A stretch of DNA of 64,000 nucleotides from positions 62,001-126,000 of the forward strand of contig JBEWZL010000048.1 in the NCBI GenBank assembly GCA_045837725.1, read 5' to 3'. Below the pieces are notes generated by a model. The model saw only the letters and a program-made list of their open reading frames with translations, made no database searches and was not told the origin of the DNA. The number at the start of each line of letters is the position of its first letter. Position 1 is the first letter of the stretch. The stretch is from Vermamoeba vermiformis (lineage: Eukaryota). Below are positions 34,870 through 59,262 of the stretch, piece by piece. The position numbers and the translations under genes were made by a program.

Positions 34870-37800
34870 TTACAATTCTTCCATTGATTGCATCTCTGCT
34901 GGCACTTCAACTCGTTGTTGTTGTCTCTTTTTACAAACGAGACAGCACAACAGCGCGTAAAATGAGCCTTGATGACGGACTGGACCCATGAATGAGAGCA
35001 GCGCAGAGAAGAAAAACAACGTGAATACGACACTCAAGAAACTGTTGACCGCGATAATAACACCAAAGGTAACAAAGACTAAATGGAAAAAGTCAGATCG
35101 GATCCAAAAAAATCCGTGCGAGCGTCGTAGTTGGTACGTACTTTGTACAGTGCAGAATAACAAGATAAAGACGGCACCCATAGTAGTTAATGAGCCACTC
35201 ACGACTGAGAAGCCCATGCTAGTAAGCGCGTGTCTGAGCTTATTGGAACGTGACTCGGAGTACTTCAAGTTGTAGGTCTCGGCGATGTGAATACAATAAT
35301 CCTGTTCATCACGTGAGAAAATGTTGCTGAGAGTGACTTGCACGTGGTAACTTACGACTGAGAGACCAACGAGGACTGTAATACTGAGTGCTTCAACGAC
35401 ACCGAGGGACCAACCAAAGATCCAGAAACAACCCAGCATGACTGCAATGTTGCCGAGGACCGACACAATGGCGAGAATAGACACAACCAGGTTGCCCGTG
35501 AACACGAGGATAGAGCCGAGAGCAACAATAGCCGAGACTATCAGACCCCATTTAATGCCACTGACAGCTACTACTTCGGTGATCATAATGTCCCATGCAT
35601 GTGTTGTATGGAACGCTTGTGCCTTGGGCGAGAGTTGATTCACTTGAGCGATGAGTTCATTCCATTTCAAGAAATCGTTGTAGTTCTCGAATGACGTGCG
35701 GCCTTTCACAATGGTCTAGAAAAAAAATTAGATCTTGATCTCGTAAGGCACGATCTCCAGCCAAAAATCTGCACGTGCTCTTGGCAAGATTAACAAAATA
35801 GGAAAGAAGAGCAAAAAAGAAATGCCGCGACCCGGGATTGAACCGGGGGCCTCTAGATCTTCAGTCTAACGCTCTCCCAACTGAGCTATCGCGGCTTGTT
35901 TCGTGACCGACCACTCGCCCCAAACGAGCCGGGTCATAACGACCTCTATAATAACCCACTAACGCTGACTTACCGTTTGGAAGTGATATCGGACCCATCT
36001 GATATTGATCTTGTCAGTTCTGTTGTTAATCAGTTCAAAACCAACGTCCCAGAGCCAACTCTGATCCAGTCGTGCCATAGTGCCGATGAACTGCGCAGAC
36101 AACAAGTAGAAATTGCCTTTGTTCAAGACTGGGAATGACATTCTCTTCTTTATCAGCCACTCTTTGAAGTTCTGTGACAAGGGTTAGTTTCAAATAAAGA
36201 AATTTCTAAGTAACGTACCTGCATGTAACAACGAGTCTTGCCAGGCTGCACGAGCTCAGAATTGTTTGAGATCATGATGCACGCTGACAGTAATGCTCGC
36301 TGAACTTCCGGATCTGCAACCTCAAAATCGGGATCGTAGATAACGTTTCCTGATTTTTCCTAATTTGGCAATAATAGTTAGCCACGCACGCTACATTGTA
36401 ACCAATCCTTACTTGGAAGATGTTGTTGGGATCAAAGCCAGTCGCGTCCAAGCCCTTAATACCGAACACAACATCGATTTCTTCGAAGTTGACTTGGTTC
36501 TTGTAGCACTCGTTGTTGCCTCCGCAGACACCACATTGATCGAACTTGGTAGCTGTAACATGAAGACGTCAGTCTCATACTATTATTATAATATCAAGGC
36601 CGTACTTGAATAAGGCACGTGATCGCAGCCACCGCAAGTCGTGTTGTCACCACCGCAGACACCACATCCGTCGATTGTTTTGTTCGAGTACAAAATGCCG
36701 TCACAACCACGACATGAAGTGCTATCACCACCACAGACACCGCAAGCGTCCAATTTCTTGCCTGAGTTTGGTTTACCATCACAACCCAAGCACGCGTTGG
36801 CGCCACCGCAAACACCGCACAAATCAAGTGTTTTGTTGGAATTTTTGACACCGTCACAGCCTGTCAAACGGTTAATTATTGTAGAAATCAAAAGGTCTAT
36901 TCGAGACGTACCCAAACAATCATTCTTGCCACCGCACACGCCACACTGGTCAACTTTCTTGCCCGAGTTAGGCACGCCATCGCAACCAGCGCAAGAGCTG
37001 CCGTCGCCAGCACAGACGCCACAAGCGTCCAATTTCTTGCCTGAGTAAGGAACGCCATCACAACCAGCACACGAAGTGCCATTGCCACCGCAGACGCCAC
37101 AAGGATCATAGCCTTGAGGACATCCGCTGATTGGAGCAGCAACAGGCGGGTTAGGATTGGACACTGGTGCTGAAACGGGTACAGTGACTGGAGGACGCGG
37201 AGCCAATGGTGCTTTGACAGGAGGGGAGACAGGGGTTGGTGTTGTGGCTACAGGCGGAGAAACAGGTGTTGGAGGTTTGACGGGCGGAGGGCTCGGTGTC
37301 TGTTGTACAGGAGGATTGGTGCACGATGAGCCGTCACCGCCACAAACACCGCAAGTGTCGTACTTCTTGCCAGAGTTAGGCACGCCATCACAACCAGCAC
37401 ATGAACTGCCGTCACCACCGCAGACGCCACAAGCGTCCAATTTCTTGCCGGACTTGGGCACACCGTCACATCCAGCGCACGTGCTGCCATCGCCACCGCA
37501 AACACCGCAAGCGTCACGTGTCTTGTTTGACCATGGGATCCAATCACAGCCAGCACAAGTCGAGTTCGTGCCGCCACAGACACCACAAGCGTCCAGTCGT
37601 TTGTTAGAACCAGGCACGCCATCACAGCTGACGCAAGAAGTGCCGTTACCACCACAAACACCGCACTTGTCGCGGAACAGGAAGGCCGCGCAACTTCGCG
37701 GGATTTTGCCCGTGCAATCACGACACGTGTCACAATTGCCGTTACAAACACCACAAATATCTTTTGTGGCCCCTGAGTTCAGCACACCGTCACAGCCGTA

Positions 37801-46407: not shown

Positions 46408-46480
46408 GCCGCGATAGCTCAGTTGGGAGAGCGTTAGACTGAAGATCTAGAGGCCCCCGGTTCAATCCCGGGTCGCGGCA
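46408..46480 (+). tRNA. tRNA-Phe (GAA), intergenic
   Basis: Identical 73-nt sequence to the copy at 35823-35895, followed by TTTCTTTTTT. Confidence 0.97.
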
Positions 46481-54521: not shown

Positions 54522-57500
54522 ATGTCGAAGAGTAACGGTACTCCCAAGCAAGAAAGAAAGAGATTCACCGGCCGTGTGTTAGGTGTTTCTTCTGGTGATA
54601 CTGTCACCGTTTTGGAATTGGACAACGTCAATACCAGAACCGATGAGCCGCCAGCTTTGCTCGAACTTACTTTGTCCAGCATCCAAGCTCCTCTTATCGG
54701 TCGTCAAAAGAACCCCGATGAGGTTAGTATTTTTACATATTATTTTCGAATATTATAGCATATTTGGGCATTTGCTTTGAATAGCTAAAATGAAACTTGA
54801 GATTGCAAAATATTCCGCACTCTAATTGCGTCTCAATTGTTCAAAATTACTCTTAATAATTCCTAAAATATGCGATCAATGCAATAATAATAGACCACTC
54901 GTTAATTGGCTCCAGATATTTTTGGTGGATTGTCATCCTGACTTACGAATTTTCTATTTAGGACTTCGCTTGGGCCGCTCGCGAGTTCCTTCGTCAAAAG
55001 CTGATCGGCAAGAAGATTGCTTACTTCGTCAACTTCCGTTCTGGAAGCAAGGCTTACGGTGAGATCTTTTTGCGCAACGAAGATGTGCGCTTGAGCGTCG
55101 TTCAAGCTGGTTGGGCCACCGTCAAGAAGAAGGACCAACAACGCGAAGGCACTCAACAATTCAAGTAAGTATTAATACGCGAACTAGCTGCCTTTGATTG
55201 GTTTTTACGAGCTCAATTTGATCCGGATATTCTGTTACGTAATTATTCTAAATATTATAACAGTATAACTATAATTATTTGATTAATATTGGCTTAATGT
55301 GAATATTTTTCTTTTTTGTAGCCGTTTTGAAAACTCCTCTCGGCATCCGGGCAATAGAATTGGTTTCTAACCTGCATCTTGTTATCAATAGGGACATCCA
55401 AGCCTTGACTGATGCTGAGGAGAAGGCTAAGAATGAGGGCCGCGGCAAGTACAGCAACAAGAAGAACCAAGCTCAACGAGACGTCATCACCAAGTTCAAC
55501 AACGTGGATGTATTCTCTCAACTCAAGGGCAAGCACGAGAATGGTAAGTAATCGTACTGTCTTACAGTCGCTATTATCAGATTACCAAGAAACGGTTCTG
55601 CGCTATTATTGGCATTAGACGATGATAGCAAGAAAAATTATACTCGGATGCAGTCTTCAATATTCGAATTTGTGGAGAATTTAAACTCCTAATAATACAA
55701 TGCAATAATAATGGCGCACCGCATCGTTATTCTACTCAATTTCTCATGTTCTAACACGTCATCTGTTATCTTCAGCCATTGTCGAGAAGGTCATTACTGG
55801 CTCTACTTTGCGTGTGTATTTGACCAAGAGCAAGTACTCGCTCGTCGTGCAGCTCTCAGGCGTTGTTTCGCCCAACTACAAGTACAACTTGCCTGAAGAT
55901 CAACAAGACCACTACGCCACTGCCGCCAAGTTCTTCACTGAGTGCTGCTTGTTGAACCGTGACGTCGATGTTGTCCTCGAAGGTACGTGCATCAGATATA
56001 GCAGTATTGCCTCATTGGGACTCTTTGTTGCGTTTTTTTATTTTGAAACACATCCCAAATCCATTCATTCCTTCGAGTTTTTCAACAGTTAGGCGTGGTT
56101 ATTAATATGATTTCGTGCAGGTATTGACAAGGGTGACAACTTCTTCGGCACCGTGTTGTACAACGACAAGAACATCGCTCTTGAATTGTTGCGTCAAGGT
56201 CTCGCTACTTACGTCGATTGGACTGGCAGCAAGACTGAATTCGCCAACGAAATGCGCGATGCTGAAGCGTAAGTACTCGATTGGTCCATTTACGTTGGTC
56301 GCAGAGAGTTTCAGATCTGTTCTTTTGACCGTTACACGGAAGCAAGATCTGCTTAGCAATTTAAGAACGCAAGAGAGCATACGATACGAAGCCTATTAGG
56401 TTGACGGAAGTCGTGACTGAACCAAGAGTGGTTTACGACCGATTTTTATTGAGCTAAGTGGCTTTGTTTCGTTTAAGCTTCGATTGGCGCGGGATCTGGT
56501 GCAGTATTGTTAGTACGGCAAGTAGTGACCCGAACACGCAGTTGAAAAGCGTCTCGGGCACGACCACACTAACAAGAATGCACCGCTTCCCGTCCGATCA
56601 GCGAAGTTAAGCTTGTTCAGGCCTTCTTAGTACTGGGGTAGGAGACTACCTGGGAATCGGAGGTGTTGTGCTCTTCTCTTTTTTGCTTTTGCTCTTTTTT
56701 GCTTTTGCTCTTCTTGCTTTCACGACTATTATTTACTTTGCCTTGTTATTGTTTATGCCTTGTTTTTTAACAACAATTTTTTTTCGGATGTAGTGCCGCC
56801 AAGAAGCAACAATTGCGCCTCTGGCAACACGGAGTTCACCGTGAAGCTAGCGCCGCTCAAAACCAAGCTAAGGAGAACAAGTCTAGCAAGTAAGTAGAGA
56901 TCAAGCAGCGGAACTGGAGTCACTCAGATTTAGATTTTTTGATCTGATTTTCTTGCTTGATACTGACCTGAGACTTATAGGAACGAACTTGTTGGTCGTG
57001 TTACTCAAATTATCAACGTTGGTACCATTGAAGTTGCCGAACTCGAAGGGTAAGCCCAGAACCAGATTTTCAACCGATCTTCCAAGATAAGCCCTGGAGG
57101 CTCTTCTTTTAAATAGTATGACGTACTAATATTTACTCATGATAGTAACGGATTGGGCCGTCGCCACAAGGTCACCTTGAGCAGCATCATTGTTCCTCGC
57201 ATGATGAACAAGGATGAGCTGGCCAAGGAGAAGGAAGAAGGTGCCAAGACCACCAAGGAAGACGATCAACTCGAGGCTGCTTATGCCTGGGAGGCTCGCG
57301 AGTTCTTGCGCAAGAAGCTCATCGGCAAGAAGGTCAGATGTGTTTTCGACTACGAGCGCAAGCAACAAAAGGGCGAAAAGAAGGAATGCTACACTGTCTA
57401 CCAAGACAAATCTAACATTGCCTTGGACCTCACCAACGCAGGCTATGCTAAGGTTGTTAAGCACGGTCGCGACGACCTCCGCTCAGCTGAGTACGAAGAG

Positions 57501-59262
57501 CTGATCTTGGCCGAGAACAACGCGCAAAAGCAAGGCAAGGGCTGGCACGGTCCTCGCGGCAAGAAAGCTGCCTTGCACTTGAACGATTTGTCCAGCGCTG
57601 ATGCCACCAAGGATGCTACTAAGCTTAAGGGCATGTTGCCTTTCTTGACACGCACTGGCAAGGTCAATGCTGTAAGTACATTCCGAATGTGGTTCGATCG
57701 GACATTATTCTCTCGAGTTTATACTCCTATTGCCTTAAAATATTTCCGTAATATTATATTAACCTATTTTTAGGTCGTCGAAATGGTTTTCAACGCCACT
57801 GGTTTGAAGTTGTGGATCCCTCGCGAGAGCTGCATGATCTCCTTCGCTTTGCAAGGTGTTCGTTGCGAACGCGTTGAGAAGACCAAGGACGGCAAGGTCA
57901 ACCCCGCCGCTGAAGGCAGCCAAGCCTACTTGTTCGCTCGCGACCACCTCATGCAACACGAGGTTGAAGTTGAAGTTGAAGCTTTGGACGCCAAGACTGG
58001 TCGTTTCTTGGGCAACCTTTACATCAACAAGAAGAACTTCGCCGTCACTTTGTTGCAAGAGGGCTGGGCTTTCTTGAACTACGGTGTCGCCAAGAACTTG
58101 AAGAATGCCTCTGAGCTCCGTGAGGCTGAAGAGTCCGCCAGAGACAAGCGCAAGAACCACTGGGTCGACTACGATCCTAAGGTTGAAGAAGAGGCCCGTG
58201 AGAAGCGTCGTCAAGAGAACGCTGAGAAGCGCAAGCCTCAAGCCACTCCTGAAGTGATCAACATTGTTGTCACTGAGATCTTGAGCGGATCTGAGTTCTA
58301 CTACCAGACCGTTGGTGAAGAGCTCAAGGCTTTGGAACAAGTCGAGAAGGCTCTCCGCGAACAATTGACTTCCGAGGAGTTGAGCGAGGCCTTTGACTTC
58401 AACAAGGCTGGTGTCAAGCTTTGCGCCGCTCAATTCAGCGCTGACGGTCAATGGTACCGCGCTGAGATCAAGGGTGTTGCTGATGACGGCGAGTACATCG
58501 TGCAATACGTTGACTATGGTAACGTAAGTATAGCTAAGCGGAGATGAGGTTCGATCAAACAGATCCTCTTCAATGATCGTTGGAGCAGATCTTGCATCCT
58601 TTTACCACGCACATTTGATATCCTTATTTTGGTGATTTATTTCAGTCTAATTTGAGGTCAAGTAGTGTGCAATATTCAAAATCAAGATCTGCTCTAACGC
58701 TACATCCACAATTTTTTCACCCTCGTACTTACACCTTTAAATACAGATGGAAAGCGTCCCTGCTGTTCCTTCCCGCATCCGCAAGTTGGACGATGCTTTC
58801 AACGAGACTGTTTTGCCTCGTCAAGCTCGTCTTGGCAAGCTGGCCTACTTGATCTGCCCCGACCTCGATGACGAGTGGGGCCGAGACGCCGCTGCCGCCT
58901 TGAAGTCCCTCGTTTGGGGCCACGAGTTGGTTGCCAACCCTCAATCCCAAGAGGGCAACGTGACCACTTTGATCCTCGGTGAGCCTGAAGGCAAGGTCCA
59001 CGTCAACGCCGCCATGGTCCGCCAAGGTCTTGCTCGCGTTGAGCGCCGCTACGAGCCTTACTTGCAACAATTGGTACGTAGCCCTGTGTATTACCATATT
59101 AGGCAATAGAAGTACTCACCGAGGTGTTATTTTTAGATTGACAGACTCCGCGAAGAAGAACAACACGCTCGCACTAACCACTTGAACATGTGGCAATACG
59201 GTGACATCCCCGATCAAGAAGAGGATGACGATTACAACAGAAAGAACAGACGAAGAAAATAA
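54522..59262 (+). CDS. SND1: Tudor staphylococcal nuclease (SND1/p100)
   Basis: Repeated SN domains (VSSGDTV, FAWAAREFLRQKLIGK, YAWEAREFLRKKLIGK); Tudor domain CAAQFSADGQWYRA...VQYVDYGN; ends NMWQYGD. Confidence 0.95.
56556..56674 (+). rRNA. 5S rRNA gene inside a Tudor-SN intron (56269-56793)
   Basis: 119 nt; helix I GGGCACGAC pairs with GTTGTGCTC; conserved GCACCG..TCCCGTCCGATC.GCGAAGTTAAGC, TTAGTACT and CCTGGGAA; T-rich terminator follows. Confidence 0.93.
56671..56720 (+). terminator. Pol III terminator region with tandem CTCTTTTTTGCTTTTG units
   Basis: T6 runs in repeated 16-nt units immediately 3' of the 5S gene. Confidence 0.7.

Follow-up and report, generated by a model that had tools for sequence, protein, structure and literature searches.

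The window, a stretch of 64,000 nucleotides of Vermamoeba vermiformis DNA analysed as a whole, carries the gene for Tudor-SN (SND1), whose 11 exons join into an open frame of 934 amino acids and match the Pfam profiles SNase (PF00565) and TUDOR (PF00567). Intron 5, the longest of its 10 introns (the other nine measure 63-239 nt, and the background median in this genome is about 58 nt), hosts a 5S rRNA gene on the coding strand. The features of the locus, in window coordinates, are the following.

54522..59262, + strand: host gene Tudor-SN (SND1)
56121..56268, + strand: exon 5, on the 5' side of the 5S intron, covering positions 47-94 of the 107 of the SNase profile
56269..56793, + strand: intron 5, host of the 5S cassette, 525 nt, phase 2, GT..AG
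56471..56514, + strand: anti-5S arm, collinear with the reverse complement of 5S nt 13-57 but degenerate; its predicted pairing partner in the pre-mRNA is the 5' half of the 5S
56518..56555, + strand: conserved block at -38 to -1, likely an upstream Pol III promoter element
56556..56674, + strand: 5S rRNA gene, 119 nt
56567..56573, + strand: branch-point-like heptamer CACTAAC, 5S nt 12-18, lying where the arm pairs most strongly
56605..56652, + strand: putative internal control region (box A, IE, box C), 5S positions 50-97, assigned by position
56679..56706, + strand: Pol III terminator T-runs, T6-GC-T4 twice (T6, T4, T6, T4), a short tandem duplication
56794..56889, + strand: exon 6, on the 3' side of the 5S intron

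Four RNA runs (X14, X15, X20 and X22, the library type of X15 not being on record) were aligned to positions 55300-57800, and intron 5 is removed in all of them. The 56268->56794 junction is present in contigs of X14 and X15, and raw reads of a diverged strain, whose exons are about 93-95% identical, skip the intron (8 junction reads in X20 and 15 in X22), with four strain-specific letters at the start of exon 6; splicing is visible in RNA for six of the ten Tudor-SN introns. The copy-specific part of the intron, 56308-56475, has zero depth in the four runs, and reads over the 5S sequence are assignable to no locus since the copies are identical. The 5S gene is thus nested in a U2-type GT..AG intron that is spliced from the Tudor-SN mRNA, and the sequence-only reading was right to place an intact sense 5S gene in the largest Tudor-SN intron. 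That reading would have been given up had the flanking exons stayed unjoined or had the copy been silent and different from the expressed 5S; exons 5 and 6 are joined in RNA, and the window copy has the majority sequence.

The gene matches RF00001 over model positions 1-120 with 104.7 bits (gathering score 38), and in isolation it folds into the canonical five-helix form. The paired helix I and the repeated terminators that had been noticed earlier both hold, the former in the Rfam alignment and the latter from 56679-56684, the first T6 after the gene, onwards. Its internal control region, in which box A, IE and box C are presumed to follow the Xenopus numbering, is intact and has the same sequence among the copies, 55 of the 60 core-matched copies being identical over all 119 nt. 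Besides the 5S gene, an Rfam search of the 64 kb matched two tRNA-Phe genes and nothing else, which agrees with the earlier remark that neither a tandem array nor rDNA lies nearby; a search of the 200 additional nt with which intron 5 begins, and of the other Tudor-SN introns, gave no match to a snoRNA or any other RNA of that database. Three other identities were considered and do not fit the locus: a tRNA-5S dicistron of the Yarrowia type (intron 5 contains no tRNA), a 5S-derived SINE (SINE3; the copies comprise the full 119-nt 5S, and beyond it lie short T-runs and unrelated flanks) and a snoRNA-like RNA processed from the intron (the gene has its own conserved block and terminator, both common to intergenic copies).

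The gene had been called solitary, which is true locally, the next 5S on the contig being 66 kb off, and false genome-wide, where 64 or more nearly identical copies are dispersed. Sixty of them, on many contigs and none in tandem in the assembly as given, were located with a 23-nt core pattern, and an Rfam search combined with the upstream motif added four variants. The closest pair lies about 18 kb apart, and 21 kb separate the nearest copy from the single 18S primer site, which was placed with both V. vermiformis primers given in the accessible text of PMC5057267 (expected product, 502 bp). As judged from the assembled sequence, the family is therefore dispersed as single copies with no rDNA linkage, a statement that applies to assembled loci, since collapsed or unassembled arrays would escape detection. 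Four twin loci with flanks 93-99% alike were removed, leaving a set of 56 copies. Two copies are damaged, L044 by a 13-nt deletion and L183 by a 1-nt insertion. "Orphan" upstream blocks did not turn out to be lost genes: three belong to 5S variants, one to an insertion at L059, and one is a copy of the block before a tRNA-Met gene. A scan of metagenomes for the 5S pattern returned mostly a second organism and a single locus of the same species, the strain copy L134, which has about 45 extra nt inside the conserved block.

Locations were assigned with a gene model self-trained on the window, 20 unselected 10-kb stretches and the 5S loci (background: 59% coding, 20% intron, 21% intergenic), after masking of the 5S cassette and adjoining tRNAs. 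Among the 60 copies, 49 are called sense-intronic (6 of them with a margin below 5), 1 antisense and 10 intergenic; before tRNA masking, the calls were 46, 1 and 13. The margin of intron over intergenic is 11.5 for the window locus (L028). All four added variants are sense-intronic as well (margins 3.7-22.7, three of them with a shorter mask), which brings the total to 53 of 64 copies and the strand bias to 53:1. Requiring a margin of at least 5 and leaving out the twin loci gives 40 sense-intronic, 1 antisense and 7 intergenic copies among 48. Chance would make about 18% of non-coding sites sense-intronic, for a p of about 6e-17 (39 of 56 used). Most of the intron calls are those of the self-trained model, 48 of the 60 loci being free of RNA or two-sided Pfam support. 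Transplanted cassettes were called correctly in 35 of 40 sense introns, 36 of 40 antisense introns and 39 of 40 intergenic sites; with such accuracy in every class, the strand bias is not an artefact of the method, and a classifier bias from T-rich flanks is ruled out. Moreover, the same Pfam family occurs on both flanks at 12 of the 45 loci for which both sides were scanned (excluding twin loci and short exons), always on the 5S strand, with consecutive profile positions at 10 loci and repeat families at 2. One of these families, thymidylate synthase, runs across the 5S intron at L025, which the gene model had called intergenic; Rfam found nothing known next to the 5S there.

The hosts identified by Pfam include a kinase, an aminotransferase, an acyl-CoA dehydrogenase, a protease, thymidylate synthase, glycogen synthase and others. 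The genome-wide search with classification of locations that had been proposed from the window yields mostly sense-intronic copies; the idea that dispersed 5S genes are hosted in introns stands, and its restriction to a conserved housekeeping gene falls, the diversity of unrelated hosts ruling out Tudor-SN as a special one. The lone antisense call, L059, is probably an artefact: 904 bp, flanked by a 10-bp direct repeat, have been inserted between its block and its gene; judged by its sequence, the site looks like a sense intron. The insert is present in one copy only and has no Pfam match. L037, which has an opposite-strand gene on either side (margin 0.3), may be genuinely antisense. Cryptic splice sites are not supported as the cause of the missing antisense copies, the best antisense donor (2.2) and internal acceptor (2.4) not exceeding those of the sense strand. 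We regard the genome-wide nesting of 5S genes in introns, in sense orientation, as almost certain.

This bias is shared by tRNA genes. In a partial sample that is in part linked to 5S loci, and from which two loci of a probably mitochondrial contig were dropped, 72 nuclear tRNA genes comprise 31 sense-intronic, 1 antisense (margin 2.6) and 40 intergenic; all seven U6 matches are called intergenic. The 31:1 bias of tRNA genes suggests that sense nesting is a general habit of Pol III genes with internal promoters in this genome, strongest for 5S. At eight of the 60 5S loci there are tRNA genes no more than about 2 kb away; all of them share the strand of the 5S, and the nearest tRNA end is at a distance of at least 70 bp.

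Several signals point to transcription by Pol III. All 56 copies have C at -1, the columns of the -38 to -1 block are conserved in about 45-56 of the 56 copies, intronic and intergenic (the window copy agrees with the consensus at 35 of 38 positions), and 59 of the 60 copies possess a run of five or more Ts within 22 nt of the 3' end, the terminator of a type 1 Pol III gene. An upstream TGAC element common to 5S and tRNA genes was considered and rejected, TGAC at -38 to -41 having only 17 occurrences among 72 genes. No gene matches the TFIIIA finger profile PF22110 better than a nine-finger C2H2 gene (L187, 775-2341), which scores 24.1 bits, below the cut-off of 27; a search of PDB did not tell this TFIIIA candidate apart from other C2H2 proteins. 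The cDNA libraries of the RNA runs show no pile-up of 5S 5' ends. We consider Pol III transcription of these genes highly probable, and the window copy is, from its sequence, best read as a normal, independently transcribed Pol III gene. Of the three fates earlier entertained for the intronic 5S, namely Pol III transcription, release from the intron and an effect on host splicing, the first fits best, given the block, the pyrimidine at -1, the T-runs and the nine-finger candidate, and release is disfavoured. Since about four fifths of the copies are intronic and no array was found, the intronic copies must be the main source of 5S, barring an array missing from the assembly.

What we term the anti-5S arm is a stretch at about -100 to -41 of intronic copies, ahead of the block, that is collinear with the reverse complement of 5S nt ~10-57, though degenerate. 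It had escaped the sequence-only reading and is, in our view, the most unusual feature of the locus. In the window the arm has an alignment z of 3.7 (p 0.005) and a duplex energy of -41.6 kcal/mol (z -4.7); in the ensemble fold, helices I-III have a probability of 0.00 and helix V one of 0.92, and the arm-5S pairing also appears in the minimum free energy structure of the complete intron 5. Across the family, an alignment z above 2 is reached by 17 of 47 intronic copies and 0 of 9 others (p 0.0015), and a duplex energy z below -2 by 21 of 46 intronic and 0 of 9 intergenic copies, the latter against nt 1-45 only and not against 40-85 or 75-119. The signal is specific to its template: the reverse complement of 5S 1-65 gives a mean z of 1.99, compared with -0.30 to 0.42 for four control templates. 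One control, the sense 5' half, was positive in 6 of 47 copies, from partial tandem duplications or by chance. When sequences from -110 to +139 were folded as ensembles, 5S nt 11-45 paired with the arm at 0.4-0.7 in intronic copies versus at most 0.2 in intergenic or shuffled ones, and the pairing probability exceeded 0.5 in 31 of 47 intronic versus 0 of 7 intergenic copies (p 0.0014; L044 and L059 dropped as damaged, L025 counted as intronic). Helix II falls below 0.2 in 42 of 47 intronic, 2 of 7 intergenic and 17 of 47 shuffled sequences, helix V being untouched. The intergenic controls for the arm number only 7-9 copies. In five held-out flanks, the alignment test gave p values of 0.028, 0.002, 0.032, 0.156 and 0.002, four of them below 0.05; duplex energy passed in two only. 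No comparable arm against tRNA was detected in three flank windows of the 31 intronic and 40 intergenic tRNA genes (mean z about -0.1 to -0.7).

Complementarity extends to the block, whose core can pair with -2..+9 in every class of copy (92.8% of cells paired); taken together, the 90 nt upstream thus look like one arm of a long, imperfect palindrome. The block was rejected as a covarying RNA stem, RNAalifold not recovering the stem and covariation not rising above that of shuffles. Within the arm, changes that keep pairs outnumber those that break them in the 14 best-aligned copies (C>T 22/132 versus G>A 10/209; A>G 14/132 versus T>C 6/209). Shuffled flanks have C>T and A>G rates (0.17 and 0.10) near the real ones, so composition explains part of the G-U excess, the contrast arising from better-kept G and T sites. 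In 254 of 276 pairs, the arms are closer to the 5S template than to one another. The pairing probability is 0.5 or less in 16 of the 47 intronic copies, some of which have no arm (L025 and L055, L025 being clearly intronic); the arm would therefore be at most helpful and not obligatory.

What the arm covers may be significant for splicing. NACTAAC/CTRAC is the commonest branch motif of the genome, CTRAC occurring in the last 45 nt of 186 of 618 predicted introns versus 38 on the opposite strand, and CACTAAC at 5S nt 12-18 is a good match. Pairing with the arm peaks at nt 16-20. The acceptor at a usable distance from this decoy branch point is weak, scoring 0.4 at nt 46 versus 1.8 for the 5th percentile of predicted sites.

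The palindrome could be a neutral relic, in which a founder cassette with an inverted duplication (centre near -13) was copied with about 100 bp of flank, its functionless arm decaying ever since and ordinary Pol III genes being tolerated in sense introns. Such an origin would account for complementarity that continues across the block as far as +9 in both intronic and intergenic copies, and for the absence of a strong arm from a third of the intronic copies; the star-like relation of the arms is also expected from independent decay of a perfect ancestor, and arm strength rises with block identity in the intronic set (rho 0.36, p 0.012), a correlation to be expected from common descent. However, the arm is absent from all seven intergenic copies, even from those with near-consensus blocks (L010 and L051), whereas intronic copies with diverged blocks (L047 and L052) have one; sites that tolerate only Watson-Crick pairs are better kept than wobble-tolerant ones, and collinear pairing over 45 nt survives in arms rich in indels. 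On this evidence we judge neutral decay unlikely, and the patterns of pairing modelled here make it probable that the arm is kept by selection on RNA pairing.

Alternatively, 5S could be excised from a Pol II-made intron in the manner of snoRNAs, with the upstream hairpin as the mark for the 5' cut. The 53:1 sense bias would follow from this, and RNA reads that join 5S to upstream flanks of other loci (18 reads in X20, 8 and 7 in X22) point the same way; the extra nucleotides in the block of L134 are also awkward for a promoter acting at a fixed distance. Yet the block and terminators are common to intergenic copies, the arm would unfold the 5S rather than present it, tRNA genes are equally biased, the inner stem lacks covariation, a TFIIIA-like candidate gene exists, and intron-derived coverage is absent at the Tudor-SN locus, all of which make release from the intron improbable. 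Still less credible is that the window copy is a silent passenger, a recent SINE-like insertion or pseudogene uninformative about 5S production: expression is indeed unassignable among identical copies and damaged copies do exist, but this one shares the sequence of the 55 identical copies and has a near-consensus block and intact terminators, and the intronic share of the family, with no array found, speaks against it.

We favour the explanation that these are independent Pol III genes whose Pol II-made passenger copies are disarmed by the arm, a putative function that folding models lead us to hold with moderate confidence. A dispersed 5S family has spread, in sense orientation, into introns of many unrelated genes, and the sense nesting means that the host pre-mRNA made by Pol II carries the full 5S sequence as a passenger. 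A Pol III transcript starting at +1 would leave out the arm, which would thus be confined to the Pol II pre-mRNA. There the arm, made first, is predicted to capture 5S nt ~10-57 as they emerge and to block helices I-III. The surface recognised by L5 consists of helices II-III and loops B-C; TFIIIA binds these together with loop A. The purpose of the capture may be to hide the branch-point-like heptamer from the spliceosome and the beta-domain from L5 and TFIIIA, as an unmasked fold could draw the pre-mRNA or lariat into the assembly of 5S RNPs. The masked intron would be spliced and degraded normally, and the Pol III transcript, devoid of the arm, would fold correctly. Antisense insertions would be purged for a general reason common to tRNA genes, perhaps head-on collisions of polymerases or pairing of the pre-mRNA with abundant Pol III RNAs. 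The arm may thus be a way for an rRNA gene to occupy an intron harmlessly. In its boldest form, which we put forward tentatively and with some doubt, V. vermiformis would make most of its 5S from sense introns thanks to the anti-5S strand: the Pol III copy folds, the Pol II copy is deliberately misfolded and so invisible to the spliceosome and ribosomal proteins, and this self-masking would have let 5S spread through a genome of short introns.

Intron-encoded snoRNAs and mirtrons likewise are structured RNAs in sense orientation inside spliced introns, and are processed from them; unlike these, the 5S genes retain Pol III signals, and misfolding is predicted for their intronic form. RNA structures can also sequester cryptic splice signals, and attenuators and anti-antiterminators rely on alternative folds. 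As in those systems, an upstream strand would here capture a downstream element co-transcriptionally, with the difference that the captured element is an entire rRNA domain and that two polymerases acting on one DNA would give two folds.

Linearly scattered 5S genes are described for Neurospora crassa, Schizosaccharomyces pombe and Acanthamoeba castellanii (PMC1635290) and dispersed ones for non-pathogenic Cryptococcus (PMC12633873); the accessible text of a preprint on S. osmophilus deals with centromeric 5S copies. In V. vermiformis, as in the first four, single 5S genes with their own flanks are found genome-wide and off the rDNA. Unlike what the accessible portions of those papers describe, which report neither intron nesting nor an orientation bias, about four fifths of the copies here are sense-intronic and associated with an anti-5S arm. 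The second metagenomic organism, whose 5S genes are also dispersed, has 20 of 21 loci called intergenic, an indicative figure as the model was not trained on that organism, and is armless (z above 2 in 2 of 23). Pol III genes within protein-coding introns are known from Caenorhabditis elegans, where 56% of the intronic tRNA genes have the orientation of the host and the host promoter can exert an influence (PMC4999229); there the genes are tRNAs, with no masking arm mentioned in the text available, and here 31 of 32 intronic tRNAs and 53 of 54 intronic 5S genes are in sense. Dispersed 5S genes near same-strand tRNA genes recall the dicistrons of Yarrowia lipolytica and Trichomonascus, in which, according to the sections available, the 5S follows a tRNA at 1-3 bp in one fused unit and needs no TFIIIA for its synthesis (PMC2566860, PMC13130702); in contrast to these, each 5S here stands well apart from the tRNA and has its own block and terminator, and a TFIIIA-like candidate exists. 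The literature searched, outside whose scope many subscription papers and supplements fall, contains no intron-nested 5S family, anti-5S arm or case of two polymerases giving two folds.

The 5S gene itself is a member of RF00001 of the known dispersed kind; its genome-wide sense nesting with an intron-specific anti-5S arm is new in the literature searched and, if the arm proves functional, would be more than a variant of dispersed 5S. About 50 independent loci form a natural series for the cost of a structured Pol III RNA in pre-mRNA, together with a candidate fix at the RNA level. The finding bears on the orientation bias of Pol III genes, on the homogeneity of identical dispersed rRNA genes and on the splicing of long introns in a genome of short ones.

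In the intron of Tudor-SN that hosts the 5S gene (intron 5), the distance from donor to 5S is 287 nt versus a median of about 140. Folding at minimum free energy predicts a separate long hairpin in this extra part (window 56269-56470), for which we found no Rfam match. In the diverged strain whose raw reads make up RNA run X20, two reads carry an A-run immediately past the 3' end of the 5S gene, at position 56675, and these A-tailed reads are possibly polyadenylated decay intermediates. The thymidylate synthase intron at L025 (minus strand) extends about 400 nt downstream of its 5S copy (about 1080-1480) and includes a GC-richer stretch, without an Rfam match at gathering level, which is a possible undescribed RNA.

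tRNA genes also occur in introns. The window contains two identical tRNA-Phe genes:

35823-35895, minus strand: tRNA-Phe(GAA), in sense orientation within a predicted intron of 258 nt (35716-35973).
46408-46480: second tRNA-Phe, called intergenic, directly past a stop codon.

The gene model calls the intron around the first of these tRNA genes with a margin of 22.6, and the minus-strand host gene has no Pfam match. Elsewhere, the intergenic tRNAs at L081, L083, L089, L090, L095 and L103 often start 50-80 nt past the stop codon of a gene on the same strand. Some of these tRNA genes called intergenic may lie within 3' UTR introns, which are invisible to the gene model. Small clusters on a common strand combine a 5S gene with one to three tRNA genes (L006, L010, L024, L034, L035, L039, L050 and L054), the tRNAs being Met, Ile, Asn, Val, Gln and Thr; at L035 and L054, a single intron, supported by Pfam, houses both the tRNA and the 5S gene. 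Three divergent U6-like genes with altered 3' parts (L115-L117) were seen alongside four identical canonical U6 genes. In the second organism, known from metagenomes, 5S genes at L146 and L147 form divergent, head-to-head pairs whose members are about 400 bp apart.

Several 5S copies are altered in themselves or in their upstream region:

L044:2071-2176: damaged 5S copy with a 13-nt internal deletion, whose twin (L049) is intact.
L183: 5S copy with a 1-nt insertion.
L033: variant 5S copy with two substitutions close to the 5' end.
L181:3013-3926 (G000 C300, near 562000-562900): single-copy 904-bp insertion, a few bases upstream of the 5S start of copy L059.

The upstream flanks of L002 and L006 contain partial tandem copies of the conserved block (-38 to -1) and of the first few 5S bases, before an intact cassette or tRNA-Met, an arrangement suggesting that 5S genes have been duplicated locally and lost. 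The 904-bp insertion splits the 5S gene from its own block and anti-5S arm; it has an open frame on the minus strand, its left end is rich in T, and it comes with a direct repeat of 10 bp. It resembles a retro-insertion that targeted the start site of a Pol III gene.
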